A stretch of DNA of 64,000 bases from Hormiphora californensis (GCA_020137815.1 CM035354.1:6386001-6450000); one strand, 5' to 3'. Positions 4,165 through 60,000 are shown, counted from the stretch's first letter. The notes: generated from the sequence alone by a model not told the origin. Translations and numbers: made by a program.

Positions 4165-7100
4165 TTAGTCCACTGGACGCACTTCAAACTTCTTCTTCAC
4201 AACAGACTCCTTCTTGGCATTAGTCCCACTACCATTAACTATCGTGCTATTGTTCCCCTGTTGCTGTTGCTGTTTCAGTCTGTTGATATTACCGTCCGAT
4301 GTTGAAAACACACAGTTGATAGGCTTGTACGTTGGTTTGTAATTCCCCTGAAACAGGGAGAGGTTAGTTGGAAAAGCGTGGAACAATGGGACGTGCTATG
4401 GGCGATAAGAAAAAGAATGAAATGTTTAATGAACGTCTGATTTTTTCATGCTCGAACAAAGAAAGAGAAAGCGGGCGGCACACACACACAGAAGAATTTT
4501 CTCAAACTCAAACTGTTTCTTTGTTTCATAGCAAAGCGTGTTTTCATGTTACCAAATTAACTTCAAATGAGTCGTTAAATGTAAAGGGATGACCCTGATC
4601 GATATTTGTAGTTCGTCTCTGTTTTATCTTCACCAAGTCAGGGGCCTACATGGGGTGTGAACAGTGGTGGAGGGGTTGTAGGGAAGTGAGGGAAATTCAG
4701 CATCCATTTTGAACCCGACCAGCTTGGAAATGAACCCTCAAATCAAATGAAAATGAGAGGGAAGCGAGAATTCATATTGCGCGCGCGGGATCCCATGCTC
4801 TATTTTACGCTTACCTTCCCCGACTTTCATTACAAACCACCTGTTTGGCGATAGCGCGCGCGGGAGAGGAGGGCTAATAATCTGTGACCAAATTACATTA
4901 CGGAACCAGGGTTTGGTAAATAGTTTCAAAAAGATTGGAAACACCCACCGGCCACCTGATTTGTGTAAGCGGAATCAAGGGAGAGAGCGGGAAATATACA
5001 TATTTTAAAGAGTAATAATTACTGTTAACATTTATCCAATTTTGGGGGAAACAAGCTTTGATAGACATGAAAAATAGAGGAGGTTTTACAAATGAGTGTA
5101 TCTTGTATATGCTGTAATTACCGATAATGCCGATACGGAGAATGTGCTACACAGAGTGTGCTGCTTGGCTATAACAGAGCTATTATAGACACACACATTT
5201 ATACACGGTTTAGGTTACGTTACAGGCTACTAATTGCTAATCACACGTGAGCCTAGAAGGAAGTATAAGTACAACATTATCACATACATTTTGCGAAAGG
5301 TTGGCACGTGGAAAACTGACACTTGCAGCAGGTCAGTAGGGCAAAAAGGGAGAGGGGAGAGAGGAGAGAAAAACAGAGAGGGAGAGAAAAACAGAGAAGG
5401 ACAGAGAGATCGTGGAAGCCTATCGAAGATAAGATATTGTTATATCGAAATATTGGTAAGTCGGAAGAACGTGTCCGTTTGTCTCATGAGGCCTCATGAG
5501 GCGCCTCATGAGACCTCATGAGGCACCTCATGAGACATTTTCAGCTGTTTCAGTGCCTCATGAGGCCTCATGAGACCTCATGAGGCGCCTCATGAGGCAC
5601 TCATGAGGCCTCATGAGGCCTCATGAGACACTGCTCATGAGGCCTCATGAGACATGTGCCTCATCCCGACTTTGTTTTGATGTCTCATGAGGCCTCATGA
5701 GCAGTTTTGACATGAGGCATGTCTCATGAGGCCTCATGAGGCCTCATGAGGCATATCTCATAGTATAGCTATAGGATTAGGGTTAGGGTTAGAGTTAGGA
5801 CCAGGTTTCGGTTCCAGTTAGGAGTACGAACCTAACCACTTAGCCCTAACCACTAAGCCTAGGGGTTAACCCCAACCAATAGGCGTAGGCCCAGAAGTCT
5901 ATCCTTAACCCTAACACTAACCCTAACCTTAATCCTAATACCAAACGAAAGTTAGGGTTAGGATTAGTGTTTGGGTTAAGGATTGAACCCTAGGCCTTGG
6001 ACCTAGGTTTATCATATTATTATAACAGTTTGCCAGTTTGGGGTTAACCCCTAGGCCTAGTGGTTAGGCTCGTACCCCTAACTGGAACCGAAACCCGGTG
6101 CTAACTCTAACCCTAACCCTAATTCCTATAGCTATACTAACTCTAAGGTGTCATGATATATGCCTCATGAGGCCTCATGAGACATGCCTCATGTCAAAAC
6201 TGCTCATGAGGCCTCATGAGACATCAAAACAAAGTCGGGATGAGGCACATGTCTCATGAGGCCTCATGAGCAGTGTCTCATGAGGCCTCATGAGGCCTCA
6301 TGAGTGCCTCATGAGGCGCCTCATGATGTCTCATGAGGCCTCATGAGGCACTAAAACAGCTGAAAATGTCTCATGAGGCCTCATGAGTGCCTCATGAGGT
6401 CTCATGAGGCGCCTCATGAGACAAACGGACACGTTCTTCCGACTTACCGAAATATTTGTCATTGAATAGGTAATGAAAAAGACGACATCGAAAAAGAGAC
6501 GGAGGGAAGGGGGAGAGAGACTGTTGGAGAAGCCATTATATAACCGAGACACTCTTTACTATGACACACGGACATACACACACTTGTATACACCTAGTGT
6601 AGTGCCATCACTTGAGTAGTATACAACATTACAGTTTACACATGACTTGAGTAGTATACAACATTACAGTTTACACACAGCCGCTAGCCGCTTTTGTATA
6701 ATCTTGGTACATGGTGGGGCAGGGACCTGGGACATAGTCAACAGCTATAGAACTGTGGCTCCGATAAGGCTCTGACAAGGCAGTTACAAACTATTAAAAT
6801 ACCTACAGACAAACAGAGGGTTACACAAAATCATCATCAGGTTACACACTAACCCCCACAGTGGCCAGTGGCCACTAAATCTCTGAAATCACAGAAACAG
6901 TACCACTGCGAGGGGCACTGTGCTACACACTGTTACACAGTGGTCAGTGTACTAGGTAACCTGTCGAATTCTCTATACGTACGGTGACTGTTGAGGAGGA
7001 TGCGAGACGCTTGTATCCCTCAGTAGACATCATATTCTGTATGGCCGTGGTGGGCAGGTAGAGGACTGTAGCACTCTTTTTAAACTGTCTCTTGTTCCTG

Positions 7101-12292: not shown

Positions 12293-14135
12293 CCTGTCAT
12301 CCTCAGTAAATGAAGGGGTGGTGAGATATCTGCAAAATGACTTTATACGAATGTGAATTTTTCTAGTGGGAAATAAAAATTATGGCCCTTGAAAAATGCT
12401 AAGATATGAATGATGGTGTATCTTCTAAGTAGAAATCTCAGTGATATGTTCAAGATATTACATCCGGCCCGATCAATTCATGATAATCTTATTTCTCGCA
12501 AGACCCTTTTTCACATCACGTATTTCACATCACGTATTTTTCTAACTCTATCTAGCAGAAAGGTCTAACTCTATCTAGTAGAAAGACAATAGCTTTCATT
12601 CCACCTAACTGCTCTCATGACTCATTGTCTCTTGGCCAGGGGAAGTATACGATCTAGAATTAAATAATTCCCAGGGGGAACATAATATTACACAATAATC
12701 GGATAAATTTCATCCTGGTAATATTTACATCGACCAGCAATATATTGAAAATTCCTGACGTCATTCTGACCTCTAATGAAATTGGTCATTCGCCCGATAT
12801 ATGAAGCAAAGTCACGTTATAATGTAACTTGGAGATAACTCTCTTGGTCGAATGATCTTTATCCAGCCGGCCAGTTGGTAAATTCCATTCAATAAAATAT
12901 CAACCAGAGTTTAATAACCAAATCGATTACTGATTATAATATTGGCCGATAAGAATCACTCTCTGTACAGAGAAAAAGACCTCAATGAATGGCTGGTGAG
13001 TAGTAAATGAAGAGATGGGTACTTATAGACAGCACTTACACACAACTCAATAGAAGGATTGAGAGGAATAGAACGAGACTGACGTGTAGGACGAATTCTG
13101 TACACCGGGGAGCTCGGGCGTTCAACGAGCACTCGCATCCATCTTCACTTTCTGAAAAAAGGAGGGTTTTTAGATCCCAATTGGAACAGCTCATAATTAT
13201 GAATGTAGTCAGCATGTTGCAGTGGGTTAATAACCCGGTCGCTTGTAGTGGGAACACGGTAATGGAAAACGGAGATACAGGATGAAGACGTGCAACCGTG
13301 GCCAATCAGTGCGCTAGTATGACAAATGCAATTTTTGCCGCGTGTTATGCAAAGTCCGTGTCTCTGGTCTCATTACTGTAATGCGACTACAAGCGGCAGC
13401 GTAACACAACAATAGTGTGTCACTATTAGGACAAAGGAAACTAGGCAACAATAGTCGACCAAAATCTCTCTGCCAGTACCTCCCGATATCAGCCATCATA
13501 TGTTCCTTGCCCTATAATATACCTACTTAAATATGTTTCCAATAAATAGTTCTTCAATAAATACCGTACCAAAAATAATGCTCTAGATTTCCCCAATTTT
13601 TACTTGTTATATTCTATCCTTCCATTTTTACTTGTTACATATATTCTATCCTTCCTTTTGGTTTACAAAATTTGCCGTGGGAAGCGGCGAGAGTTGCCTA
13701 GCTAGACTCTGTTTCGCGTGCTATGCCCCGACAAATTTAAAGGAGGGTTAGAACATAACAAGGCGAGAGGGGCTGAGAGGGGGTCGAGCAATGCAACCTT
13801 TTAGCAAGCTAACGCGTGGCAGCATCATGAATATATACCAGTGCTACTAATACATATAATACAGTTACCTGTTTCTAATAAATCGCTATTCTTCGTTCCC
13901 ACAGAAAAGTTACCGCCTGCTGATGCCGTAGTGGAGAAGTTGTTTTCCCGTTTATTCACGCCATTTCGTACTTTCATTCTCTCCTATATAACATTGCAGA
14001 CAGATCATTATATGTGTAAGAACTAGTGAAGAGTATATATTTATTGAAATATTCTGAAATATATTAGTCTGCAACACCCTATATCACTCTAACCCAATAA
14101 TTTGTCACAGAACAGTGTTGAGAACCGCCCCCCGA

Positions 14136-15146
14136 ATGAACATGACATTTAACACGACCAGCTTCGTCCCCTACCTCATGACTCAGCCAACACCAGTGGA
14201 GCAGTACATCATGGCAACATGGACTCTATCCCTGTCTTTAATATGTCTAACAGGCAACACTATTGTGCTCAAAGGAACGAACCATCTCCGTCTGGATCGC
14301 ATCACAAAGGTGTTTATCCGGCATCTTGCAGTTGCTGATCTATTCAATGCCATGGGCAACCTTGTTATCGCATGGTTCCAGTTTACCAAACAACCCTTTT
14401 TTAAAGACATGACACTTTACTGTGTCCTACACACGCGGTATGTGTACTTTTTCGGCGGCCTAGATATATTTTTTGTTGCAGCCATCAACATCAGTAAAGT
14501 GCACGTGTTACTTTTCCCAATGGTCGCTCGAGCTCGACAGCGGAAGACGGGGGAGATCATTGCAGGGAGTTTCTGGGTCTCCCAGTTTCTGCTCCAGATA
14601 TTCACCGGAACCTACAGCGCCCTGACTGGCACAGGATGGGGATTTTTCGCACGATCCTGGTACCAGTGTACCATTCTGGGAATGCAGAAGAGGGTTAACT
14701 TCATCAACAACTTAGTCATGGTCCTCTTACCAACTGCTATTGTAATAGGAACTACCGTGTGGATGCTTCGCTTTGTTAGGACGAGGGTCCGGGGCTACCA
14801 AGCCACCGTTCTTATGCCGGTCATGGTTTCCATTGTGTTCATCTGCTCTTTCGTGCCCTTTACAATTACTAACGTATACAGGACGAACAATGAAGGAACC
14901 GCAGCACTAGAAGCGACCTGGTTTATCCTTGCCTCCCGATATGCTATGTGTCTCATACTCGTAAATTATTCTGCGAATCCGGTGATATATTTCTTTACCG
15001 TGAGGAGTTTTAAGGAATGGTGTCTAACCCTGTTGGGAGCGCAGACATCCAATCGCTTACAAATGTCACGGAGCAAGGAGGGAACGAGCGATCGTGCTGT
15101 GAGTGGAACGACGGGAGCGTCACGGCACACTACTTCTGTACTGTAA
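14136..15146 (+). CDS. Intronless rhodopsin-class (class A) GPCR
   Basis: Seven hydrophobic segments; GN in TM1 (LTGNTIV), LAVAD in TM2, Cys at the top of TM3, CSFVP in TM6, NPVIY in TM7. DRY position reads ISK. First ATG at 14136. Confidence 0.9.
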   Translation: MNMTFNTTSFVPYLMTQPTPVEQYIMATWTLSLSLICLTGNTIVLKGTNHLRLDRITKVFIRHLAVADLFNAMGNLVIAWFQFTKQPFFKDMTLYCVLHTRYVYFFGGLDIFFVAAINISKVHVLLFPMVARARQRKTGEIIAGSFWVSQFLLQIFTGTYSALTGTGWGFFARSWYQCTILGMQKRVNFINNLVMVLLPTAIVIGTTVWMLRFVRTRVRGYQATVLMPVMVSIVFICSFVPFTITNVYRTNNEGTAALEATWFILASRYAMCLILVNYSANPVIYFFTVRSFKEWCLTLLGAQTSNRLQMSRSKEGTSDRAVSGTTGASRHTTSVL

Positions 15147-38223: not shown

Positions 38224-39060
38224 TTAAAAGTTGACAACCTTTGGTTTCGGTTTATCAGGTTTTGTTTCAGGTTTCTTTTTCACAAACTCTCCAAAATCTA
38301 ACATTCCATCGTCATCAAGACTTCCCCCATCACCCATTGTCCTCAATTTGATGGTGTTATTCGTCCTTCGCTTCTGTTTAGTCGGACAATCCTTTGCAAA
38401 GTGCTCCACATCACCACACTCCTTACAACAACCCCCGTTAGGATAAAGACCCCTGGGGTTATCAGGACAAGATCTTGACAGGTGACCTGTTTCATTGCAA
38501 ACAAAACATTTGGCGTGAGGAAAACCGTTTATATCGTGTCTCCTACAGGCCGCTGAGGTGTGCTCAGTTGACCCACATTTGAAACACATTCCAAGACCTT
38601 TTTCAGATCCTTGGGGACATTTTGATGCCTTGTGGTTTGTACTCCTACACACAAAACAAGGGTTGTCCTTGCCACGGCGTCTCTTGTGAACATCAGCCCG
38701 ACTTGCCTTCCGTGCCTCTGGATCCATCTTAGAGAACTTCATTGAGCCTTTGCCCTGTTTTCTTCTGAACTCCCCACCGTTATCTGACTGGCCACCCTGC
38801 TTCCTCCTAAATTCACCATCTGACTGGCCTCCTTTACCTGATTTCTTGTTGAATGAAGGAGCACTACTACCTGCTGCTGCAGTGGAAGCAGCCTCTGCAG
38901 CTATCGCTTCATTCACAACCTGCTGTTTTGGTTTCTTCTTCTTCTTCAACTTCTTAACAACCCCATCCTGTTTGGCAGGTATGGACTGTTTCAGGGAGGA
39001 CCAAGCTGACCCGTCCTCAGCTTCTTTCTTACCAGCTTGGGGTCTTGCGTACCGTGTCAT
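38224..39060 (-). CDS. ZCCHC9: CCHC zinc-knuckle protein, single coding exon
   Basis: Four CX2CX4HX4C knuckles, including CFKCGSTEH and AKCFVCNETGHLSRSCPDNPRGLYPNGGCC..VEHFAKDCP; basic tail ending KVVNF. Confidence 0.88.
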   Translation of the reverse strand: MTRYARPQAGKKEAEDGSAWSSLKQSIPAKQDGVVKKLKKKKKPKQQVVNEAIAAEAASTAAAGSSAPSFNKKSGKGGQSDGEFRRKQGGQSDNGGEFRRKQGKGSMKFSKMDPEARKASRADVHKRRRGKDNPCFVCRSTNHKASKCPQGSEKGLGMCFKCGSTEHTSAACRRHDINGFPHAKCFVCNETGHLSRSCPDNPRGLYPNGGCCKECGDVEHFAKDCPTKQKRRTNNTIKLRTMGDGGSLDDDGMLDFGEFVKKKPETKPDKPKPKVVNF

Positions 39061-39334
39061 TACACTAATAGTAAAGGGAGTGGTGGTGATTTGTAAAGTA
39101 GCACGGAATGAATTGGCAGTTACACTGCTTCTAGAGAAAGGGGGGGGGGGTGATTGACGGAATGAATTGGCATAGCAGCGAATCGAACATCGCTGGAGAG
39201 GACATGATTAATCAAAACCAAGTTGTTCTGTGCAATTTTCACATCGATTACATATTTACACTCTATACAGCATAGAAAACACTTTACACACGTAAATAAA
39301 AATGTCTCTGTTGTATATAATATCTGGAATGGGT

Positions 39335-43778: not shown

Positions 43779-46700
43779 TCACTCTTTCGTGTTTTTTCGC
43801 GTCCAGCTGACCAACTCTCCGAGGAGGGTCAACTTGAAATGTTCTGCTATGTTCTCCAAAATGTCCAACAACTGTTGATAGTCAGCACTGTGTTCCAGAG
43901 TGGCAAAACTTCCCGCACAACTACAATAGTCCGCCATATTGCTACTCTTTACCCCATTACACTTGGTACACACCAAATCCTGGAGGGCAAACCCAAGGTT
44001 CCGCTCCTGGAGTTTGGAGATCAGACGACCCTCAATAGTGCTCCGATCGTAGGGCGTCTGACAATGGGCACACAGCCAACATGGGGGTGGCCCCTGATCT
44101 AGATAGGGGTCCCTACACAAATCCAGATCCCTACAACTACTGCACTTGCTGCAAATCACCTCCGGTAGTACAAACGAGAGGCAAGGATCCTTGAAAATAG
44201 CTGCCTCGGAGAACTCTCCTACAGACACCAACTTGAGCAGGTCTCTCTTCAGTTTATGGACCTGGGCAGCTATGGTGGGATCCAAGCTGAGAACCTTGCA
44301 GACAGACTTGATGAATTCGAGAGAGGGACACTTTAGTTCAAGATGGGAACCTGAAGAGAAAAAGGAGTAGTTAGGAAAAGTGAAAACCAGCTTATCAATG
44401 TAATGGGTATGTTATGTGTTCAACTGAACAGAAACAATTAGAGGAATATGAAAGCTGTACAAATCACGTACCAGGTAGATCCGGGAACACGTTCCTATCG
44501 CCCAGTACTCCACTAGGCATGGAGCTATGTACCCTCTGGACTATACCAAACAGTTGCCCCTGTAGCTTTTCATGAACAAACTCTTTTAGGGTACTGTGAT
44601 CGTGTAGTTCTGTCTTCTGGGAGGCTCTTCTGATAGGGGTCTCACCCGGGACATGCTCCTCTAGAGACACAGTTAGACTCTTGTTAACTGCCTGGGAAGT
44701 GGGGATACAGTTAGACTCTTGTTGACTGCCTGGGAAGTGGGGATACAGTTAGACTCTTGTTAACCGCCTGGGGATTGAGCTAGACTCAGTTTGTAGAGAA
44801 AAGAGATATTTCGACATTTCTAAACCAATCAAATCATCACACAATATGAAACTCTACAGATTCTACTACCTGTATGTAGCCAGCGATTATCAACTGAAAG
44901 AACTTCTGTAAACTACCATCCTCAGGGAGGAACTTCTTTATGTTCCAGTTCATTTGGATTGTGGGAGCGAGGCTGCCCTGTTCTCTGAGGGCTCCTCCAT
45001 AGTTCACCACATCCATCCAGAGTAGGTTCTCCCAACTCTTTGTTACCTGGTGGAAAGATGGAGGGGTGATTGATCAGTTACCTGCAGTAGAGGGGCAGAC
45101 CTGGGTAAGTAATTTTATCTGAGGAGCAGAGTTGGGGTATATCATGGAATGGACAATACCCTACTCTACCATATTTCATGCAATAAGGTGGGCGTGAGTG
45201 ACACAGTTGTAAACAGAGTGAATGTTTATCGCGTGGGTTGTACTTTCATTGATATTTCTTTGTGTTTAAATTAGAGCCCTCCCGATGGGAAGGCAAACCA
45301 AAAGGAAGTGTTACCGGCCTCCGAAGAGAGCCAGTTGAACACTAAACTCAGCTTACCTCAAATTAATTTGTTTAAAGTAGTGTTGAAAAGTTTGAAACTG
45401 CTGATGGCGTGCTGGACCGGCCTCCCAACTCACACTACGCTACAAACTCGGTGCAGGTGACTTCTCCCAATATGGTATAATGCGGTTGATAGCTGTCACG
45501 TGTCGGGCACGTGCTTGCTTCTTGGCAAGTCTGGACATGCCAGAAGTTGCACGTGATCAGAGGCTTGCACAATCACATTATCCCATTGTGTCACGTGCAA
45601 TTGAGACGTCCCAAGAGAGGGTTCCCAGAAGGCACGTGATTATCATGTGATAGCACAGTAGGAAACTGGCAATCTCATTATCCCTTTCTGGGAAAGGTCA
45701 CATGCTTTCTACAGAGCCTATCTACGTGTGTTCGTAGTTACATGTGACCCCACGTGACATAATGGTATAATGTGATTGTGCGAGCCTCCTATCACGTGCA
45801 ACATCTGGCATGCCCAGACTTGCCAAGGAGCAAGCACGTGGCTGACACGTGACAGCTATCAACCGCATTATTCCATATTGGGAGAAATCACCTGCACTGA
45901 GTTTGTAGCGTAGTGTGAGTTGGGAGGCCGGTCCAGTACTCCATCAGCAGTTTCAAACTTTTCAACACTACTTTAAACAAATTAATTTGAGGTAAGCTGA
46001 GTTCTAGTGTTCAACTGGCTCTCTTCGGAGGCCGGTAACACTTCCTTTTGGTTTGCCTTCCCATCGGGAGGGCTCTAATAAACACAAAGAAAATAGAAAA
46101 ACAACCCATGCTTATTCCAGCATCCCGCTACCCACAAGAAGAGCAGTTCGAACACATACCTGCAGATCTAGACACCGGAACAGTTCCTGACTGGTGATAC
46201 TGTTGACAATGTAAGTGACATAGTTATCAGCGTCCTCTGTTGTCCTTTTCTTGGTAGCCAGAATGACTCTGTTCATGTCGCAGTACACAATGGAGGAACC
46301 AAGCTTACGGAACTGCGGGGGAAGGTGAGATTTAGAGGGCGAGAGGGATTCTGGGGTGGGGGATTCAGGAGGGGAGAGGTTTAGAGAACTGGGGTGAACG
46401 CCAGGATAGGAGGGGTACAGAGAAATCAAGATAGATTTTAGAAATGATGGGAATCTGGAATCTGGAGTTAGGGATTCAGAGAACAATTAAATTTCGACAA
46501 CGCGTTACCTCCATTATGAGTTGCATGAATAGTTTCTTGATGGCACTGTTGACGACCCTTGCCAGGGCAGGGTCGAACATCAAGGAGGCAGGACTGGTTA
46601 ACCACCGGTAGAAGTGAACTAGCTGGCCATCAGCCAGGGTGTTCCCCGAGGAGGAGACCTAGAAGAGAGAGAGAGAGAGAGAGAGAAAGTTGTAATACAG

Positions 46701-48008
46701 TTATATGAGATCTGTCTTCGAAGTTTGTAATTTGTTCCAATTTCAAAAGTTTCAAATAATATGTAAAGGTTGTATCACGTCCCATACTAAAGTATGCGAG
46801 ACACGTGAGATCTGACAGATACCTGATGAAGCCATCCCATGACCATAGTTTTGAGAACTTTGAAGGCGGGATTAACCTGTGCAGCCTCATCATAAGCAGT
46901 CACCATGGCATGACTTCCCTCACCATCCAACCCGACCTGCAGGGAGAGAGAGGGCATTAGCTAGATGGACTTTTGTAAGTTTCTGAATAATGATCTCCTA
47001 TGATTTAGATACATGGGGTACATACCATGACCTTCGTATGACATGTACGAGGGTTATTGACAGAATTCTAACACGAAATATTATAACTTTCTCATGATCT
47101 CTATCAATTTATTGTTCTCGCTTACCTTTTGATGGACTGAATCCAGTGCTACAGTTGTTACACCCTCCAGATCGTTTATGTGGTGACTATGTAGGATTGT
47201 ATTTACCGCTAGACCCTCCAGATTTACCTGGAATGAGACATTGAGAAACTTGTTAGCAGATATTCCTGGCCCTTTCACACAAGACATAAATATGTGACAA
47301 AGAGATTCAGAATGATTAAACAGGGGGGGGGGAACACTTACCTCGACACAAACAGTGTTATAGGCAGCAGGGAAGTTGAGAGACAGAACATGATCAGCGG
47401 ACCCAGTCAACCTCTGATCATCTTCCTCCTTGCCCCCTAGATCGGGCAGGGGAGAGGTACTGGCCCATAACACGTGGTTACTCCTATACAGGTGACGAGC
47501 ATAGAACACGTCAGCTGCCAGGATTGTGACGTCACTTGGAATGTTGCCAATTGGAATGTGGGCGTAACGGGCGTAGAGGAGGTGTTGTTCCAGCCACTTT
47601 AGTGAACTGAGGGGATGGAGACTGGAGTTAGTAAGTTAATCCATTCATATACCTACCCTACCATGTATCACAACACCCTTCAACTAATATCTACCCCAAA
47701 CCATCTAGGTCTCAGCTAACATCAAATCCTAGCCCACTTGAAGGTTCTAACTGGTTTAGGTACCTAAAGTAGTGAGAGAGCATCTTGCGGGCCCCGTGTC
47801 TTTGCCAATCCAACATGGCTATTGAGTCAGTGTGATCAAATGGTACTCGGACCACGGGGAAGGTTGTTACTGCCGCAACCTGAGGGGGGAAGAGACATGT
47901 TAGTAACCACTAACCATGTCGACTTTAAAAAAGGGGTGATCTGTTGAAAAGGGGTGATTGCGGTATTTTTTGCTCGATTCATATCCGGGTAAAATATAGA
48001 GAGAGAAA

Positions 48009-48061
<53 letters not shown>

Positions 48062-51000
48062 GAGAGAGAGAGAGAGTGAGAGAGAGAGAGAGAGTGAGAG
48101 AGAGAGATAGATACAAGAAGCATGAAAGATAGAAGCTCGAAATATATAAGGTGCCGTTAGATATTGATCACCTAAGAAAAAGTGTAAACATATCAAGACC
48201 CACAATGACAATGAGGGTAGGAATCACAACCCACAAATCTCCCTCAGTTCCCATGTGTAAACACTAATTGGGACCAGTTATTATTGTGTTATTGTGATCA
48301 TGGGGTTTGTTTTGGTGCTCCTGACCGTGCTCGTCAGCGCTGTCAGCACTGCCACCGTTTCTGAGTGCAAGCTTCAGGATAAACAGCTTCTCAAAGCACG
48401 TGAGTTAATTGTGTTTGTACAGTTGTTGAGAGTCTGTTGTTTACTGTTGTTTAGAGAGAAAGTGTCAAACTATAACTGGACCAACTGAACACCATTCTAC
48501 CACTATCAAACATTGAGTCGCTGTGTAGTAATTCTACTAAACCCATCTATTCGTGCAGTTATCACAGAGGTGAGTAATATAGCCTCGTTTGAGGCGTGTG
48601 TCGAGTATTGTCAGAACTATGAGGGGGACGATGAATGTGTGGCAGTTGTCTACAAACCTAAGAAGAAACAGTACGTGACTAGATCAGTATAACGTGTTTA
48701 TTATCCGTACCATTCTAAAGATTCCAATTGATTAGTTTTGACTAAATAATCACTTGTTTTGTTCAAACCCATTTTAATTACACAGGTGTAATCTGAAGAA
48801 ATGTGGTCACAATGCCCCATCTACAAAGGCCACAAACCAAGCCCTGAAACTCTGCTGTCTGACTGGTACATGTGATACCTGCCAAGACTCCTGTTCTGAT
48901 ACCACGTGTGCTGAGGACGTGGGAAGTGCTGTGGGTAGTGCGGTCAGTGAGTGTCTAACTACTGGAACCTGCGGACTGGACGCAACCTCAAATATTGCAA
49001 ACTGCAAACTAGAGGATCAGCAGATGTTAGGAGGACGTAAGTTTATACCATCCGAGTCAACGATGGTTGCATTGATCACTTGTGTAACCATGGTAACTAA
49101 CTCCATTGTTTCAGTGATAAAGACTGTGAAGCAGGTTACAACTTTTGAGAACTGTGTCCAGGAATGTAAAAACTACGAGGGGGACGATGTGTGTGTTGGT
49201 GTAGTTTACAAGACTAAGAAAAAATTGTGAGTTATCATCAATGATCATGCAAAGTTTATTCACTCATATCAAACATAAGCACCAAGAAGATTTTATGAGT
49301 AACGGAGCAATTCTCATCGTATGCCAGTCTAACCCATTCTTGTTTCATAGCTGTAACATAAAGAAGGATGGTCACGCTGAACCGACAGCTAAAGTAGACT
49401 CTAACTCGCTGAAACTGTGTTGTATCACTGGATCATGCAATCTGGGAGCGGATCCAGAACTTGCAAAATGCAAAACAGTGGATACCCAACTTTTGGGAGG
49501 ACGTGAGTTGAAACAAATCATAGCAATCTGCTGATTTAGTAGGAAAATGCAGCAACTAAATCGATATTGTTTCAAAGTGGTTGACATGTACCTTCTTCTT
49601 CTTCGCAAATGAACCCCATGTTTTGTTACAGTGATCAAGACAGTGAAGGGTGTGACATCTTTTGACGACTGTGTAAAACTTTGCCAAAACTACGAAGGGG
49701 ATGATAAATGTGTGGCATCTGTCTTCAAAACCGCCAAAAACTGGTACGTTTCGTTGTTTCTTGCTTGAGTTTCTTCAAAGGATATCATCCTGGATTTCTC
49801 AAACAAAGAACCCGACTTCCTTCACACCCTACTATTTACTTTAGGTGTAACCTTAAAAAGTGTGGTCACGCTGCTGGAACCTACATCGCCAGCTCAGAGG
49901 CCCTGAGACAGTGCTGCCTGACTGGTACCTGTGACACTTGCCAAGATTCCTGTGCGGATAAGGATGATTGTCTGGGACCTGTAGTAGACGCAGTGGAGAC
50001 AGCCATAAGCGATTGTTATGAGACTGGAACGTGTGATGTAGAGGATGCCACTTCGGATATCTCCAAGTGTAAACTAGAGGATCAGCAGATGTTGGGAGGA
50101 TGTAAGTGGTGGTATCAAGATAAATTTTGGTAGATATAGTTTTGTGGTTACCATGGTAACTAACGATGTTTAATCAAGTCACATGTGTAACCATGGTAAC
50201 TAACCCCGTTGTTTCAGTGATCAAGACTGTGAAGCAGATCACAACTTTTGAGAACTGTGTCCAGGAATGTAAAAACTACGAGGGTGACGATGTGTGTATT
50301 GGTGTAACTTACAAGACTAAGAAGAAATTGTGAGTTGAAATTCTTTTAGCAACCTTTTAACTCTTGGAGAATTTGGTTTTTTTTGTGAAACATGCCAGTG
50401 TAAATCTAAAATCCCTGACACCCCCTACCCAACTCCCCCGTCACTAGTTGCAACCTAAAGAAGGCTGGCCACGCAGACCCCAAAGCTAAGGTGGACTCCC
50501 ACTCTCTCAAGATCTGTTGTCTCACAGATACCTGCAGTACCACAGCCCTGTGTTCTGGTGACAGCTGTGACGTCTCCCCCATAACCACCTGTCTGGCAGA
50601 CTCATCCTGTGATTGTTCAGGAGCGTGTTGTGCCTGTACTAAGGATACCTGCGGTTGTATTGGAGCAGATTGTACCTGTAGTGGCTCTGATTGTACCTGT
50701 GGACCTCTTGGGTGTGGGTGTTCTGCCCTTGGGTGTGGGTGTATTGGTCCAGGTTGTGGCTGCACCGGTTCCGACTGTGGATGCAATGGTGCGGGATGTG
50801 TCAAGATAGCCGCGGAGGAGGGAAAATGTTCAGCTCTAGGGTCCGTCACTATTAACTGTCTCGCCACAGGGACCTGTGTCTGTACTGGATCAGGGTGTGG
50901 ATGTACAGCTGCCACCTGTGGGTGTGTCGGTGCGGCGTGTGGCTGTTCTGGATCATCTTGTGCTTGTGGATCTGCTGGGTGTGGGTGTACTGGTGCTAAT

Positions 51001-54000
51001 TGTGGCTGCACAGGATCTGGGTGCACGTGTAGTGGAGCAGCATGTGGGTGTACCGGTCTTGGTTGTGCTTGCTCGGGATCCTCTTGTACAACAGCTGTAG
51101 CAGTTGCTAATTGTGTTACCGCGGGAACCTGTGCTTGTACTGGGGCTGGGTGTTCCTGTGGTGCTGCTACTTGCGGCTGCGTGGGTACCGGCTGTGCCTG
51201 CAGTGGATCTAGTTGTAGCTGTGGCTCTGCTGGTTGTGCGTGTAGTGGCGCTAACTGTGGGTGTACCGGTTCTGGTTGCGCCTGTTCCGGTGCAGGATGT
51301 GGTTGTGTTGGGGCTGGTTGCGCCTGCTCAGGAGGATCTTGTACAACAGCCGTGGCTGTTTACAACTGTGTCACGGCCGGTACATGCTCCTGTACTGGCT
51401 CAAGTTGCTCCTGCGGGGCTGCTACTTGCGGCTGCGTGGGTACCGGTTGTGCCTGTAGTGGTTCTAGCTGCAGTTGTGGCTCTGCTGGATGTGGTTGTTC
51501 TGAAGCTAATTGTGGTTGTACCGGTTCAGGATGTGCGTGTAGTGCAGCCACGTGTGGCTGTGTTGGAACTGGTTGCGCCTGTTCAGGGGGGTCTTGTACA
51601 ACAGCTGTAGCAGTTGCTAACTGTGTTACTGCGGGAACCTGTGCTTGTACTGGGGCAGGATGCTCCTGTGGTGCTGCTACTTGCGGCTGCGTGGGTACCG
51701 GATGTGCCTGCAGTGGATCTAGTTGCAGTTGTGGCTCTGCTGGATGTGGATGTAGCGGCGCCAACTGCGGCTGTGTGGGTAGTGGTTGTGGTTGTAGCGG
51801 TGCAAGTTGCGGCTGCACAGGTTCAGGGTGTGCATGTACCGGGGCAAGTTGTACCATGGCAGTAGCTGTGGCCGGTGGGTGCTCTGGAGCTGGCTGCTCG
51901 TGTGCCGGCAGCTCCTGTGGGTGTACCGGCGCGGCATGTGGTTGTACCGCTGCCACATGTGGATGCAGTGGTTCCAACTGTGCATGTAGCGGATCTGGGT
52001 GTGCCTGTGGGTCTGCTGGTTGCGGGTGTACTGGCGCTAACTGCGGGTGTACCGGGTCTGGCTGTGGTTGCAGTGGGACAGGTTGTACTTGTGCAGGAGC
52101 AGGATGTGCGTGTACGGGAGCTGATTGTTCCTGTTCCGGTGGTGGCTGTGTTTGTATTGGACCGGCTTGCACTATTGGAGCAACCTCTCTTGGCTTCAAC
52201 TGGTGGTACTTGTTAGCAATTGCTGCCGGCCTGGCGCTCCTCTCTGCTCTCACCATTCTTATTCTGGTTCTGTGCGGATGTTGCAAGATCCATTCTGTTC
52301 CCTGTCCTATTGGTGGAGGTAAGAAAGGAGGTGGTAAACCTGGTAAAAGGGCTGCGAAGAAGGGTAAAAAACCAGGAAGGAGGAACAGGAAGAAGTACTC
52401 TGAAGTGGATTCTAATGGTTCTGGTTCTGATTCCAACTCGTCCTCTTCCTCTTCATCATCTTCGTCGAGTAGCTCATCTTCTTCTTCTTCGTCGAGTAGC
52501 TCATCATCAAAATCAACAACTTATGTTTAAACTCAGATTGTATTGATGAGAGCCCTGATCTCAGAGTTGATTGAACTTAAATCTAACATATAAAGCCAAT
52601 TGGCAAAATTACGTTTTGATCCGTGATGGAAGATAAAGTACATGTACGATTTGAAAGGTACAAAGTATTAATAAACTAATATTATGTTTGGTAGACTAAT
52701 CTATTATTATTCATTTTTAGAAGCTTTGTAATCTATTACTATTCATTTTTAGAAGCTTTGTTTTATTCGTGTAAGTCATTGCCAAATGTTTGAACCTCTG
52801 TCTCTATGTCCCCCTATCCCACCAACACCCCACCATCTATATGCAACCCACCAATGTCTATAACTTACCCCAATGGCAGTTGGGTCAACACTTTGAACCA
52901 GTAACACCACACACTTGTGCCTTTCCTTATAATCCGTCATGTACCTCTGGATGGCCCTGGCAGTTGCCTTCGTGCTTCCTTCAACCCTGACCTGATGGAA
53001 AATGGAGTAAAATATTGCTCTTCCGCGTTAGAAAAAGCCCTGATTTTGGTTGTGCTGCGGGAGAGGATTAGAGCCTAGAAGATCCAAAAAAATAAATGAG
53101 GACAGTGATAGATAATATTAGAGAACGACTAAAAATCGGGTTGATGCTCAACCAACCGAACTCCGGAACTCTCCACGATTGTAAACATGACCTAAACTCC
53201 TCTCATTAACACATTACACATGTCACATACCTCAAATCTCATGTCCTCAGGGGGAGGGTAGTTAGCGATATCTGATGATAGTTCCCCGTACACCTGTTTG
53301 TAATGATTTCCCAGACTACCCACGCTGTTAGTTTTGGAGGTGTCTGTTACGAAGAGGGTTCCCTTGTGTTCCGCTCCACTCATTATTGCCACCATACCCC
53401 GTCCACCTGACATGCCTATCTCGTACACATACAGGTACTGCGGAAATGGGGGGTCAGGGTGAATAATACTGTAGTCAATATTATGTTGGAGTGACAAACT
53501 ATACAAACCTGAACGGTGGACAGATAGTTGACTTCGGCTTCCGATTTGAATTGTAGTGTCTCAAGTTCGAAGACATCGCTAGTGTCGCCAGTTAAACTTC
53601 TCTCCCGGGCGTGGGATCGGTCCACCCCGCACACACAACCCAGTTGAACAAGCAGTCTGAAGAGTGGTGTCATGCCCGTCTCGTAGACTCCCTCAATGTC
53701 CGGGCCAGCCAACTCTGTCGATATTTCACCTGCAGCGAAGAATTGTAATGTCCTTGATTTCGGCCTTATCAATCACACAGTATCAGATGCAGTAGCTCCT
53801 ACACATTTCTGTCTAGCTTGTGCAATACTTAACAACAAAGGACTGCACGAGCGCAGGTTATATATCCCTACCTGCCTTGCTCGACCCTGTTGTTTGAAAA
53901 ATAAAAAGTGTTTGAACCAAACAAATCCCTACCGGCATGCTCCTGGAAAATCTCCTCAGGTACTGTATACTCGTAGAGGTAGATCACGGGCACGGACCGG

Positions 54001-57000
54001 GGTAACAACCGGCTACACTTTCGCCAGAGAACACCCGAGTCTGTGTCTTTGGGCTCGCGGCAGTTCACGTAAAATGTTCGGGGAACAGTCACCTTGGGAA
54101 ACAGAAGTTAATATCTTTCAAACAAAACTTCTCAAATGAACGTCGAAGTGGTGGTCATTTAATTGGTCATTTAATTCGTTCAGCGTGTTAAGCAAAAGTG
54201 CTGTTTCTGACATAAAATGATCTGTTTCTTATAACACACTATGCTGTCTTATAATAAGGGAAAACCACGTGTAAACACCGCTTCTCTTCCCTCTCTCATC
54301 TAACTCATACAACTTTCCTCTCTCAACTAACTCACACTCCACCATTGGCATCCGCATTTTGCACGTGTACCACTTGAATTATAATGACACTGACAGACGA
54401 ACAGAGATGTGATAGCTGACAGCAATAAAAATGTCTATCTCTCTTTCTAATTTTCCTCACCTTGACCTGTTGTATGCTCCCTCCAATAGAGACCCACAGC
54501 CGAAACAACCCTGGTGTATCCAACTGGACCACCTCGATGACCTCCCACACCCCACTGAGGAGACTCTTGAGGCCCTGCCTAACAAAACCATCCATGGTGG
54601 TACCGGTCCTCGCTGGTTTCTCTCCCCCGCCCCGGGCCACCACCTTCCCTGAGTTTGCCCTGATCTGCTTTTGTAACTTCCACTTCTTCTTGTGGAAGGA
54701 CAGCCAGGATTTGAACTGGGCTGCACCTTCTTTGAATATTGGCGGGTCACCCAATTTGTCTCTCCAGTGGCTAGGAACCTCGTCAGTAGATCGCTGTCTT
54801 TTTGTCTGTTGCCGTTTGTCTGCTGCAGCAGTGGTAGGGGTTGTGGTTGAAGCGGTTTTGGGTTGGTTGTTGGTCAGTGATTTGAGGGGAGCCCTTTTGA
54901 AGACCTCTGTGAGTTTTCTCTGTTGATGGCTATCGTTCTTCTCCCGTACCATCTTGTACAGCCAGTCAGGGTGTTGGACCCGTGGTACTGGATTACTGAC
55001 ACCTGAAAATGGAATGCTTCGTTAGCATGGATTCTGAAATGATGTTATCGTATAACACCACCACCATAACAGTCGGAAGTACTTCTACTGGTGTACTATT
55101 TCTAGTGCGTGATAGTGAACATTTCTCTTGGAGCTAAACACTCTGATCTGACAGGTGTTTTTGTTGTTGAGTAAACACGATTTCAAATAGACTAAATTTA
55201 AACCAAAAGTATGACATTATGAATTTTAAAATTACAGTTCCAATCTCTTCTTGTCACAGGGACACATCTCTTCCTGTTACAGTTCCAATCTCTTCTTGTC
55301 ACAGGGACACAGCTCTTCCTCTACAGTTCCAATCTCTTCTTGTCACAGGGACACAGCTCTTCCTTTACAGTTCCATTCTCTTCTTGTCACAGGGGCAGAG
55401 CTCTTCCTCATCATCCTGCTTGCCATAATCCGTAGCCGGATCAGCCTTCCTCCACTCGCTCTCTCCTGTTGATACCAGTATAGGGTACCTAGAGTTGTAG
55501 AACAATCGACACCTGCTGTCGTATCCACGGGCGAGTTTAGCAAATCCCTTGTCTCCCCAATCAGCTCCCCACGAGTTCTTTATCAGGTAGTAGTCAGGAG
55601 TGTATCCTACCCCGGTGACAGCGTGGTTATCTATGTAATTACACGTTTTGTCTGTCAAAATACCCCAGGCGTAGTTGGTGAAGCGGTCAGTCGCTACGAT
55701 CGTCATGGCGATGGCACCCTGACCTAAGGCAGCAAGATTATAGCTCTCAAATCCTCTGATAACCTTATAATCATCAATCCGAGCTGCGACGAGAGAGTTC
55801 TCTGTGTTTCGTTGCAGACAGGAGCCTCGTGCACCTCGGTAAGGGTAATCGGAGGTGCCAGCCAAGTGTTTCTTCCGCCTGGCATGGTCGAAGCAGTGGT
55901 AGATCCGGCCGTGGTTGCATCCCTTGTAAGGATAAGTGGAGGCACAATCAATACATTCCTGCTCTGCAAAGTTCCTCAACACGCCCGTCTCCATGGCATA
56001 CCGAGTTTCCAGACTTCCAACTGCGGCAAAAGCCCACCCCGATCCACACGATCCTTGATCTTTGACGGGGGTGACCTTGTCTAGCCAGAATAACCGACTG
56101 GGGGCCTTCAGGTTCATCATTTTAGGGGGTTCTTCCTCATCCGAACCGGCTGGTTGCTCACTTCCAGTCCTGTTTAATCCAATGCGACTTTCCTTCTCCG
56201 CACTAGTCATGGCGGAGAATTTGTTGAGTTCAAAGTGAGCTTTCTCTCCCTTGACATCATTCAGCTCGGCGACATAGTGAGCGTTCTGTTTAAACAACCT
56301 AAACCTCAATCCGTCCTCTTCTGCCGAGTTATATTGGAGATGTTGATCTCCCTTGAACTTCCGGTACAGCTGCAGAGTCTTCATAGGGCTGCGGAGGATG
56401 GTCTTGAGTCCATCGTCTGTAGCCTGGGTCAGAGCGAGCTGGGAGAGTAGTATTAACAGGAGCTTCATATCTTCTCGGGTGGAATTGTTGAAGAGAATAC
56501 CGCTCAGTATTTTTATATACACGAGTTTCAATTGTGAAGATCTGGACGAGAAGTGTGAATCATATTTGTTTTTTGCTAATTGATTTTCCTGGAAACTCCA
56601 TCTTTGTTTCTGTTCACCCTGTTGAACTCTTCAAGACAAGGCTTAAGACCCGGCTATTTAAGGAAGCTTTCGTTGATCCAGAGAGCAGTAGCACCTGAGT
56701 CATCTCGTCTTTGGGTCACTGGTTCTGTTCTGGTCTGGGTTTAGTGTTCCCCTTAGGCAGACGTTTATTTAGACAGTGTTATTCCTCATTACATTTACCG
56801 GGCTTGCAGTAATAGCTGCTGACTTTGTAATAGCTTTGAGAGCTGCTGTCTTTGAGTAACATGAGAGCTGCTGACTTTGTAATTTAGCTTATTCAGTGTG
56901 AGAGCATTTTTATGCCTATCTAAGTTGGTTCGTATTTTATGAGGCCCGTATTTTCATCAATAAAAGTCTATCTATGGTGTGTTTAAATCCAGATTTTAAT

Positions 57001-60000
57001 AGTGTGTGTCATAAGTAAGGAAGGTGTTATAATTTAGGTATACCGCTCTGACGCTGAGCAGTGTCAGTCAAAATTCAGTTTGCTGGCCCTGTTTTGCCTG
57101 GGCGGTATACAAAAACTTATATTATTATTATTATTATTATTATTTGTTTCTGGGGACATAGGTGCAAGATACTCAATTAATTCTTCTTGGTAACGAAGTA
57201 ATTTCATTACTAAGAATTTTTCCAGGTACAGATACAACTTGTTACTTTAGAGTCTACTCTAGCTCTAGGAATGGAAACTTTTCTAGCACTTCATTCGTCA
57301 ACTCTTATTGTTATCTAGCAACCCTCACACGTTAGATTTAATTGTTGAAATTAACACACATCAACCATCTGGTGATAACTATGATCGAGGAGGACACGTA
57401 CTGAACTTTTCAATTGTGGAAGGTCTGGAAACGACATTGGTTCTGATTTGAGTGATTCGCCCGATGGGGAACCTGTTTGAAACAGAACCATACACAGCTA
57501 CTCAAATATAACATGTACCTTGTAGAGCGGCGGGAATGGTGATGATCTTCATGATGGCGCTACCAAATCTCTCTATGTAGTAATCCCAATCCAGGATATC
57601 CCGGATATCAAGGCTCACCTCCCCAGGTGCCTTCATCCACCTTCTCAGGTAGTACTTCTTAACCGCTGGTTCAGCCTGGAATATTAGGTGTTGGGAATTC
57701 ACTTGCAATAGAGTTCTCGCTCTTGTGTACCTATAACTTCAGCTTCAGTTACTCACACTGTATCATACCTGAACCCATCACACGGAAGACAGTTTGTTGA
57801 AAAGTATGTTTTCACAATTCAAGTATTCACCTGGAAAATAGCAACAGGAATGGCTCTCTCTGTCACGGGACTTCCCTCCGGTTTTCTCGCAATAATAAAT
57901 TTGCAGTTCAGTCCCTTATCCTTTGTCATTTGGTCCCCGAGGAACTCTGCAATCCTCTTGGCGGTACTGATCGATGTGCTCTTTTGGTCTCCGTACTCCT
58001 CCAGTTTCCGTGACATTGATCGCTGGGAGCTGACCAGGTCGAATAACTCTTCATCAGGGAGGTTGGCTGCCCGAGAGTACAGGATGTCTAGCCAGTAGTC
58101 AGCTACCTGGATGAGGGTTGCCGGTTGGGTTGTTAACTTGATCAGGGATCAAGGATCATTGGTACAACCACTGCAGGCACCATGGTGCTTCAGTGGTGCA
58201 GCAGGGGTTGTTGTTATGGTGATGTCATCGTGTTACCTTAGCAACCGAACCGTAGCAGGTTTCCAAGTTGTTTCCATCAAGGAAAGCGCTAAAAACTGAA
58301 CTTTGGAAGTTTTTGATCAACCCTAGCTCTCCCCTTCGTTTCAGCTCAAAACCCTTCAACTCGGCTAAACTGCCATCAAAGTTAAACACAGCGTATCTCT
58401 TTTTCAGTTTCTTTCCCTCCTCTTTTGCAGCTGGCAGGATCATAGCCTGGTAGGGTCCGTCCACCTCAAAGAAGATACTGTTCTCCGACTTGATGCTGAA
58501 GGGGAAGGTTAATTAGTGACGTCACTATCATGGTGGTTACCATCGTTACCATCGTTACTAACGGGTTGTTACCTGTAACTAAGGGTCGCTGGATCCTCAA
58601 GGTCGTGATATTGATCGTTAGTAAAGTGTTTGAAGACCATGACGTTGAGCATTGCACCAGGATACGATATGGTGAGCTTCTGCTTCCTTGGATCTGTATA
58701 GAAGGTTACGAGTAAGTTAACTCAAGTTTTAATTGATTAATTAAAGCAGAAATTACGAATAAAATATGTCCATCTAACTAATATTCTCACCCGGGTGGTT
58801 GGTTTTAATTTCGTAGTTCTCAGGAAATGACCCGGGAAGGCAACACCAAATCCCATCCGTATCGAGTTCGAGAGGTCGACCAATCTCGTCAATGATTTCC
58901 CTCGCTTTCTTGATGATGTTAGCTCCTGAGAAATTGATAGATAGATATGTATATAGATAGTTAGATAGATAGACAGAAAGATAGACAGAAAGATAGATGG
59001 AAAGATAGATGGAAACTCATCCTACCTGTGTAACAAACTATACCCGCCATTTCCATCGAATACCACCGGGCGCCCTTCCTCATCACATAACCGTAGAATG
59101 AATTCAGGATGCACTTATGGGCCAGCTGTAGAGAATCGTAAAGTACCACCTGCCCTGCTAGTCTCTTTATCTCCACAGGATCGCCTTTCTTTACTGCTTC
59201 ACCGTGCTTCTTTCCAGCCTGCATGAATTCAACATGTGAAACAGGGTTATCTTTATTCCGAAACATGACTTCTAAATGTTGTTGTTGGAAGGGTAACTTA
59301 TTTTCTACAAAACAAGAATTATTGCATTATGTATTCATAATGCTGTGTTTCCCTGCCCTACCGTTTCACATGTCAGTGACATTGTCACTGCCAACAGGAT
59401 CAAGGCTTGGTCATAATGTAATGTGAGATGCATACGATCTAGCTGTCAGTGTCAGTATACTTCTCACATAGCTTAGAGTTAGCTAACTCCCAATCACATG
59501 ACACTTGCTAACCAGCTTTTGACATTCCAACTTAACTACTTATCTAACATCTCACACTCGACTCGCAAGATGAAAATGTGTATGTAACACGCGAAACGCG
59601 CGGCAGAGCATTTCATGTTTTGTTGAGTGGCGCGCGCACACACGTCCATCAAACTGTGTCAATGAGGTGTTTGATGAAGGAGTAGCTCGTCACTGTGCGC
59701 GCGGCTCTAGTTGCTACACCGTTGCCCTCGCAACGAAAGTGTGACCAAAAAATGTCCCTCTACCGATTAGTTAGTATACCAAAATGTCGTTTTCGAATTC
59801 TAACCCTGCTATGCCTTTTTACAAAGTAAAAAGGCATCCGGGTGAATGCCTCCGGCATTCACCCGGGCAGGGAAAAAATGATCACATTGTTTTATAGCCT
59901 GATAAAATCATCTGTTCATTTTTCGCTCCTACTGATGCGAGATATGGATTGGTATGAATCACTCTTCCGCCGGTCCGATAGAGAATTATGTACAGACCTG

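Follow-up and report, generated by a model that had tools for sequence, protein, structure and literature searches.

Tandem six-cysteine apple domains, arranged in pairs, are described in apicomplexan adhesins, namely MIC4 (PDB: 4a5v, 2ll3) and P104 of Toxoplasma and SML-2 (PDB: 2yil) of Sarcocystis (PMC3261864, PMC8247436). MIC4 is reported to hold six paired apple domains and to bind terminal galactose (PMC8247436), and P104 to bind chondroitin sulfate (PMC3261864). Disulfide-braced solenoids are likewise known, with 10-residue coils in midge and 12-residue coils in Tenebrio antifreeze proteins, built from short Cys/Gly repeats in which inward Cys residues provide the bracing (PMC13080227). 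The ryegrass ice-binding protein (IBP) uses an NXVXG/NXVXXG repeat with 14–15 residues per turn (PMC5744647, PMC7383708), and the four in-facing residues of its roll form two Val and two Asn ladders (PMC13080227). Here we describe a gene in a 64,000-nucleotide (nt) stretch of Hormiphora californensis DNA (GCA_020137815.1 CM035354.1:6386001-6450000; hereafter the window), which encodes a predicted surface protein with four probable apple/PAN domains on a long CxCxGxx heptad stalk that plausibly folds as a two-sided beta-roll. A preliminary description of the locus, made from the sequence alone, had not recognised this architecture, and indeed no protein with apple heads on a Cys-heptad stalk was found in the databases and literature (titles and abstracts) searched.

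The gene occupies 48300-52675 and lies, complete and antisense, within a single intron of the gene for the DNA polymerase epsilon (POLE) catalytic subunit. The host intron (47880-52868, minus strand, 4,989 nt) has GT-AG ends and its flanking exons join in frame, their POLE identity being given by Pfam DUF1744 (E 2.5e-38) and zf-DPOE (E 2.2e-21); the intron nesting proposed earlier is thereby confirmed. Such nesting is ordinary for the ctenophore clade because nested genes are common there, with 2,357 reported in H. californensis (PMC8527503). Splicing the nine exons by their coordinates, a check suggested in the preliminary description, gave a coding sequence of 3,291 nt and 1,096 amino acids (aa) whose sole stop is terminal. 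All eight introns are GT-AG, 78–159 nt long, with phases 1 and 2 alternating, and all but intron 3 (78 nt), which is open, are interrupted by an incoming-frame stop. As had been claimed for the module cores, exons 2, 4, 6 and 8 are exactly 112 nt each, in phase 1/2. The gene model is solid, and its features are given below, where apples 1 to 4 are the probable apple domains and P0002 to P0005 are database proteins discussed later; Pfam scans of the heads used exon pieces, not the spliced protein, with cut-offs of 21.4 bits (PAN_1) and 27 bits (PAN_4).

47880-52868, minus strand: POLE host intron, 4,989 nt, GT-AG (in-frame junction; DUF1744, zf-DPOE)
48300-48399, plus strand: exon 1, with ATG, predicted signal peptide (aa 1-18, 48300-48353) and Cys1 of apple 1 (splice sites, hydropathy, alignment with the P0005 N-terminus)
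48559-48670, plus strand: exon 2, 112 nt, phase 1/2, apple 1 core, Cys2-Cys4 (PAN_1 E 0.0044, 17.3 bits, cut-off 21.4)
48786-49036, plus strand: exon 3, with Cys5-Cys6 of apple 1, a long Cys-rich linker and Cys1 of apple 2 (3' part: P0004, 37/41 identical)
49115-49226, plus strand: exon 4, 112 nt, apple 2 core (PAN_1 E 0.013; P0003, 34/36 identical)
49351-49502, plus strand: exon 5, with Cys5-Cys6 of apple 2, a short linker and Cys1 of apple 3 (splice model, Cys spacing)
49632-49743, plus strand: exon 6, 112 nt, apple 3 core (splice model; alone, without a Pfam match)
49845-50101, plus strand: exon 7, with Cys5-Cys6 of apple 3, a long linker and Cys1 of apple 4; duplicate of exon 3 (P0002, 80/85 aa identical)
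50218-50329, plus strand: exon 8, 112 nt, apple 4 core; duplicate of exon 4 (PAN_1 E 0.0045)
50448-52530, plus strand: exon 9, with the end of apple 4, a Cys-rich linker, stalk, transmembrane (TM) segment, cytoplasmic tail and stop (open frame, splice model)
50650-52170, plus strand: CxCxGxx heptad stalk, aa 471-977, predicted two-sided beta-roll (repeat counts, models, fold comparisons)
51085-51849, plus strand: three full 255-bp (85-aa) units, each a 15-aa spacer plus 10 heptads (TRF, unit alignment)
52204-52284, plus strand: predicted TM helix (aa 989-1012) and juxtamembrane CGCC (hydropathy)
52321-52527, plus strand: cytoplasmic tail, with a Lys/Arg/Gly patch, YxxV, poly-Ser and C-terminal T-Y-V (sequence)
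52670-52675, plus strand: candidate polyadenylation signal AATAAA, 140 nt past the stop (sequence)

The signal peptide proposed earlier agrees with a hydrophobic N-terminus, where Kyte-Doolittle windows exceed 2.0 at starts 1-3, and the same measure places the TM segment at starts 989-1000. Contigs from run X1, presumably RNA, show no junction in the nested gene at 85% or 80% likeness, which has no bearing on expression. One X1 contig of 118 nt matches 48842-48882 with 7 differences, a weak hint that another copy of the module end may be present in that run. Two observations concern the introns: retention of intron 3 (49037-49114) would add 26 aa to apple 2 without a stop, and introns 3 and 7 both contain a GTAACCATGGTAAC-type near-palindrome.

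All four head modules, each of 72 aa, share the Cys spacing C-x23-C-x3-C-x8-C-x11-C-x21-C, modules 1 and 3 having one extra Cys each, and are probably divergent six-Cys apple/PAN domains joined by Cys-rich linkers of 16–51 aa. The module formula given in the preliminary description does recur in the four, except that module 1 reads LKA in place of LGG, and that the module continues beyond the NLKK taken as its end to the sixth apple Cys, 22 residues past the fifth and within an L-x-x-C-C motif. The head arose by duplication of a two-module block, a feature overlooked before: modules 2 and 4 are identical at 63 of 72 aa (39–42 in the other five pairs), close alignment extends to exons 3 and 7, and ~57 nt are still common to introns 3 and 7. 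The ratio of non-synonymous to synonymous substitution rates (dN/dS) among head cores is 0.09–0.19 in all six pairs, with dS often near saturation.

Relatives of the head were sought with a head-exon profile, A2, over 1.84 billion representatives at E up to 0.001, and four proteins were recovered at E ≤ 0.001 (P0002, P0003, P0004 and P0005). P0002 is a Pleurobrachia bachei model, and its 80/85 identity over exon 7 bears out the earlier guess of a ctenophore host and places that host among the pleurobrachiids; upstream of this match it is gapped and divergent over the intron-derived part, which supports the exon 7 border. P0003 (34/36 identical to exon 4) and P0004 (37/41 identical to the end of exon 3) are fragments. 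The contiguous P0005, of 209 aa, combines a signal-like start with a single module, a TM-like stretch and a Sushi domain, the last scoring 21.6 bits in Pfam and so exceeding the cut-off. Exons 1, 2 and 3 align with it in the same order, which lends independent support to the junctions. Its module matches PAN_4 (E 4.3e-5; 23.9 bits, below the cut-off of 27), Toxoplasma MIC4 (E 1.5e-5) and SML-2 (E 0.0096), and among its Atlas matches that have a family, the best ten all fall within PAN (family or clan), although none scores above 0.85, which makes them a lead only. With the six-Cys spacing in four of four modules, these matches uphold the PAN/apple identity first proposed. In its build, P0005 sets this apple subtype on another kind of stalk, a hint that the two may belong to a small family of receptors whose ectodomain spacers have been exchanged.

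Further searches marked the reach of these profiles. Profile A4, made from P0005 and the window exons, reached solved apple domains at E 0.004–0.11, and the 36-column window core profile alone found no apple structure among solved structures. The A2 profile matched none of 2,499 candidates of 257–2,000 aa, and P0005 as query found nothing but itself among 344 candidates; low complexity and the word index limit both searches. A metagenome scan with the core profile gave 166 pattern matches that came down to two loci, both due to chance and rejected as relatives, one being the wrong frame of a transporter-like gene and the other an unrelated open reading frame (ORF).

The likeness to MIC4 comes by way of P0005, and the heads likely share a role in adhesion through glycan or protein binding. 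P0005 reproduces exactly the CX3CX5CX11C consensus of Cys2-5 in MIC4 (PMC3261864), whereas the modules of the nested gene carry three extra residues between Cys3 and Cys4 as well as the Cys-rich linkers. Moreover, MIC4 is anchored via MIC6, whereas the apples described here stand on a stalk, TM segment and tail of their own.

The stalk is 507 aa long, of which 88.8% are C/G/S/A/T, and contains 132 Cys and 9 charged residues. Its Cys autocorrelation peaks at 7 (0.83), 14, 21 and 85, in full agreement with the heptad periodicity over more than 500 aa noted previously, and clean CxCxxxx-CxC tiles number 54, whereas 2,000 shuffles averaged 0.38 and never exceeded 3. The 59 heptads fall into six runs of 6, 10, 10, 10, 10 and 13, parted by short spacers, with the consensus C-[G/A/S]-C-[S/T/V/G]-G-[A/S]-[G/S/T/N]; across the 54 heptads tallied, Cys is invariant at positions 1 and 3, and Gly fills position 5 in 40. 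TRF reports a 255-bp period at 50964-51774 with 3.2 copies, as expected from the 85-aa units of the preliminary description, but only three units are complete (aa 616, 701 and 786), one of these three differs from the others at its start, and the two flanking units are degenerate.

Selection on the stalk is visible in its repeats. The three full units are 85–91% identical in protein and 74–82% in DNA, with dN/dS of 0.079, 0.151 and 0.107; all 22 Cys are kept, while 7–8 of the 22 codons differ synonymously. These values, which exclude unit 0 (its 86-aa spacing puts an ungapped comparison out of register) and unit 4 (degenerate and near saturation), are far from ~1 and in line with the protein-level selection claimed earlier. 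A pseudogene or a DNA-level satellite was rejected on the grounds of the open frame and of dN/dS below 0.2, and the sequence supports a real spliced gene with selection at the protein level. The antisense Pro/Gln-rich ORFs were rejected as the true gene, being mirror frames of the repeat without a splice model.

Each 15-aa spacer closes with C-x-x-G-T-C preceded by an Ala/Val-rich stretch, and the same arrangement, overlooked in the first reading, occurs in both long head linkers; because of this common motif, we infer that the stalk unit grew from a head linker via heptad expansion. Searches with exon 9 and the stalk recovered no relative. The exon 9 frame matched none of 7,994 candidates of 381–1,213 aa, a search limited by low complexity and the word index, and it had no usable match in the Atlas, which shows neither novelty nor absence. 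A stalk profile gave no match to PDB sequences, and Pfam found no family in the 703-aa frame at E up to 1, hence no ZP domain match.

The fold of the stalk can be approached from its register, an argument that is independent of any structure model because it is drawn from sequence. The CxCxG register is that of NxVxG, with Cys at both inward places, and the four runs of exactly 10 heptads are as a 14-residue coil would need. Such a coil predicts two distinct faces, which fits the alternation at position 4, beta-branched in 22/30 odd but only 6/29 even heptads (p 7e-5, all runs). Two stalk models, both of low confidence, agree with a strand in each heptad: in the 107-aa model, residues 41-90 reach a pLDDT of 62–69 and show a three-residue strand in nearly every heptad. 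Compared with 48,161 chains, the best fold match was an RTX beta-roll (Z 8.9, root-mean-square deviation (rmsd) 2.2, 71 aligned), followed by the ryegrass IBP 3ult (Z 8.2, rmsd 7.6, 93 aligned, 22% identity, from a model of pLDDT 55.7) and by trimeric autotransporter heads (Z 6.2–7.6, rmsd 7–8), and both models gave the same classes of match, two-sided beta-rolls. In the structure check proposed earlier, the models show one strand per heptad at low pLDDT, and Foldseek found nothing at E ≤ 0.001 for either model. Taken together, a stalk solenoid is plausible, and the predicted extracellular topology suggests that its Cys pair as disulfides. With a strand spacing of ~0.475 nm per coil, its 29.5 coils would make a rod of ~14 nm.

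The ryegrass ice-recrystallization-inhibition domain (3ult), the match with the highest identity, offers a parallel in that its half-coils are heptads too, each with two residues turned inward and Gly equally placed, and 14-residue coils are predicted. The stalk is nevertheless not a member of that family, having Cys/Cys inward and not Asn/Val, and so no NxVxG with Asn ladders; it would comprise ~30 coils against 7–8, lacks Thr rows and belongs to an animal membrane protein. At an rmsd of 7.6 the hand or geometry may differ, and the likeness is one of register and fold, not homology. The trimeric autotransporter heads (UspA1, BoaA, YadA) and RTX proteins resemble the stalk models as two-sided beta-rolls (Z 6–9), and the former are also long surface adhesins with heads on stalks, but they are bacterial, lack a Cys core and are 8–20% identical, making this an analogy of fold only. 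The preliminary description had looked to beetle antifreeze proteins, and while its solenoid is made plausible by the strands and beta-roll matches of the low-confidence models, this analogue does not hold. A beetle-type antifreeze was rejected, the period being 7 (14) and not 12 and T-C-T occurring in 0/59 heptads; insect antifreeze proteins share short Cys/Gly repeats and inward Cys bracing, whereas the stalk would place four Cys in each coil. The two-sided 14-residue roll of ryegrass is accordingly the better analogue, given the absent T-C-T and the heptad half-coils. No report of a CxCxG heptad solenoid was found in the literature searched, and the all-Cys heptad roll is possibly a new solenoid element.

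Beyond the TM segment, the tail holds the juxtamembrane CGCC, a Lys/Arg/Gly patch (16 Lys and Arg in 84 aa), YxxV, poly-Ser and a terminal T-Y-V that fits the class I PDZ-ligand pattern. The four elements named in the preliminary description (TM helix, CGCC, basic patch and poly-Ser) are all present, and the C-terminal T-Y-V had been missed. CGCC is a likely palmitoylation site, and motifs of these kinds suggest palmitoylation, sorting and class I PDZ binding for the tail. Of the surface fibre first envisaged, the predicted surface location stands, but because the protein has a type I membrane anchor and cytoplasmic motifs, a stalked receptor or adhesin is a better description than a fibre. 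A signal peptide, tandem PAN domains and a single TM segment are also features of the PAN-ZP membrane proteins of animals, among them NompA and LET-653; the nested gene differs from these in that exon 9 lacks ZP or any other Pfam family and its stalk is a Cys heptad repeat.

We propose that the gene encodes a stalked, multivalent surface lectin or adhesin, raised on a disulfide-cored beta-roll rod and tied inside the cell to a scaffold, the likeliest of the readings weighed here, although we find the case for and against it evenly balanced. The product would be a single-pass surface protein whose four predicted apple/PAN domains, at the stalk tip, likely bind glycans or proteins. Each CxCxGxx heptad would form one short strand and a turn, and two heptads a 14-residue coil with four Cys facing inward, at the places of Asn and Val in grass IBPs; oxidising conditions in the secretory pathway would let the inward Cys pair as disulfides, giving a stiff rod of ~14 nm that the 15-aa spacers would split into five-coil segments. 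Polyanions such as sulfated glycans would be the first candidate ligand of the heads, because each has a Lys-rich C4-C5 hairpin (6, 6, 4 and 6 Lys in 17 aa across the four modules) and because sulfated mannans are reported in the mesoglea of P. pileus (10.64898/2026.02.02.702917). On the inner side, CGCC, the basic patch, poly-Ser and T-Y-V would secure the protein at the membrane and link it to a PDZ scaffold, and above the glycocalyx it may serve in multivalent adhesion or recognition. A bolder form of this proposal, which we advance tentatively and consider somewhat doubtful, holds that the stalk is a new heptad beta-roll, convergent on NxVxG and grown from an apple linker, with cystine filling the core (each 14-residue coil contributing four Cys), and that it makes a covalently locked, segmented nano-rod with four lectin heads, possibly for prey capture.

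Several observations weigh against the stalked adhesin. The profile check suggested in the preliminary description did yield PAN_1 matches on three of the four head cores, yet all fall below the cut-off (15.8–17.3 bits vs 21.4; E 0.0044–0.013), and the exon 6 core, as a lone exon piece, has no Pfam match; the apple assignment leans on P0005, and a net charge of +2 to +4 makes each domain just mildly basic. The AlphaFold stalk models, one of 300 aa from a single sequence (mean pLDDT 47.5) and one of 107 aa from a six-row alignment (mean pLDDT 55.7), have pTM of 0.25 and 0.40. A Z of ~8 for repeats may reflect merely a common arrangement, and the rmsd, low against RTX, is ~7.5 against the ryegrass and autotransporter rolls, so that the roll may be of either hand. 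Without the duplicated runs, the odd/even signal weakens, with p 0.010 (runs A, B, C and F), 0.025 (A, C and F) and 0.37 (A and F, the two terminal runs).

The low confidence of the models also suits a different picture, in which the stalk has no single-chain fold and adjacent molecules are joined through its 132 Cys, forming a covalent coat or fibre anchored in the membrane, the apple heads serving in assembly or decoration. Keratin-associated and nematocyst wall proteins are analogues of such cross-linking, and the extreme Cys density and the very small, nearly uncharged residues (9 charged in 507) would agree with it. We consider this unlikely: the strict 7-residue register over 59 heptads, the 10-heptad runs and the exact conservation of Cys exceed what random cross-linking needs, and both models agree on one strand per heptad. 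Metallothioneins, too, have CxC pairs and small residues, and the 132 stalk Cys might instead form a metal-thiolate sponge, membrane-tethered and facing sea water or a vesicle lumen. However, metallothioneins are small soluble proteins without signal peptide or TM segment, whereas this one has 1,096 aa, a hydrophobic N-terminus, a TM segment and, in its stalk pieces, no Pfam family at E up to 10. Signal peptide and TM segment would deliver the array to an oxidising compartment, in which disulfides are the usual state of Cys, and metal storage has no need of four apple heads, all of which makes the sponge very unlikely. Ice binding, which the fold and heptad register shared with the ryegrass IBP might suggest, is extremely improbable; T-C-T is missing from all 59 heptads, Thr stands at position 2 in 4/59 and at position 4 in 18/59 and so forms no regular rows, and the membrane anchor and apple heads would be left unexplained.

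A role in colloblasts or tentacles, for example in holding the adhesive or recognising prey glycans as a receptor or tether in the membrane, would be compatible with the stalked adhesin. The host is a tentaculate pleurobrachiid, the adhesive of colloblasts has been called an unknown protein (10.1101/2020.06.27.175059), and candidate colloblast proteins are reported to be enriched for signal peptides and TM segments (PMC6278862). Nothing links the nested gene to tentacles, however, and as that report presents its candidates, single-pass TM or low-complexity proteins are not enriched among them (PMC6278862); we regard this role as distinctly unlikely, though less so than the metal sponge.

Several other features of the window were recorded. 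A single-exon papain-family cysteine protease with an I29 propeptide (Pfam E 2.6e-46) lies at 55365-56630 on the minus strand, the same as POLE, within a 2,516-nt stretch (55001-57516) that two X1 contigs skip and that has GT-AG-type ends; it is a second nested gene, parallel to POLE. Its catalytic motif, CGSGWAF, has Gly in place of the usual nucleophile Cys, and the protease may be inactive. At 44900-46010, a repeated element with an X1 contig depth of ~1,000–2,700, many loose ends and two similar copies near 45405-45650 (plus strand) and 45722-45943 (minus strand) is probably a transposon or SINE-like (short interspersed nuclear element) repeat inside a POLE intron; Rfam has no match in the whole window, this element included. 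A single ORF at 38224-39207 (minus strand) encodes four CCHC zinc knuckles (Pfam E 3.6e-14) and is presumably ZCCHC9-like, an intronless rhodopsin-family G-protein-coupled receptor lies at 14058-15146 (plus strand; 7tm_1 E 3.9e-12), and two arrays of a palindromic decamer, a CTCATGAGGC-type repeat, occupy 5483-5752 and 6253-6420.

Head-on-stalk type I adhesins are already known as a kind, and what is possibly new here is the all-Cys heptad roll. If true, a 14-residue all-cystine beta-roll would extend the disulfide-braced solenoids beyond the 10- and 12-residue coils of insects, and would provide a very simple rigid scaffold of tunable length. The motif common to head linkers and stalk spacers suggests, in addition, how a repeat fold can grow from a domain linker. 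Surface and adhesion proteins of ctenophores are poorly known, and the nested gene puts forward one definite, expressible protein as a candidate receptor, specific to the lineage, for adhesion or recognition.

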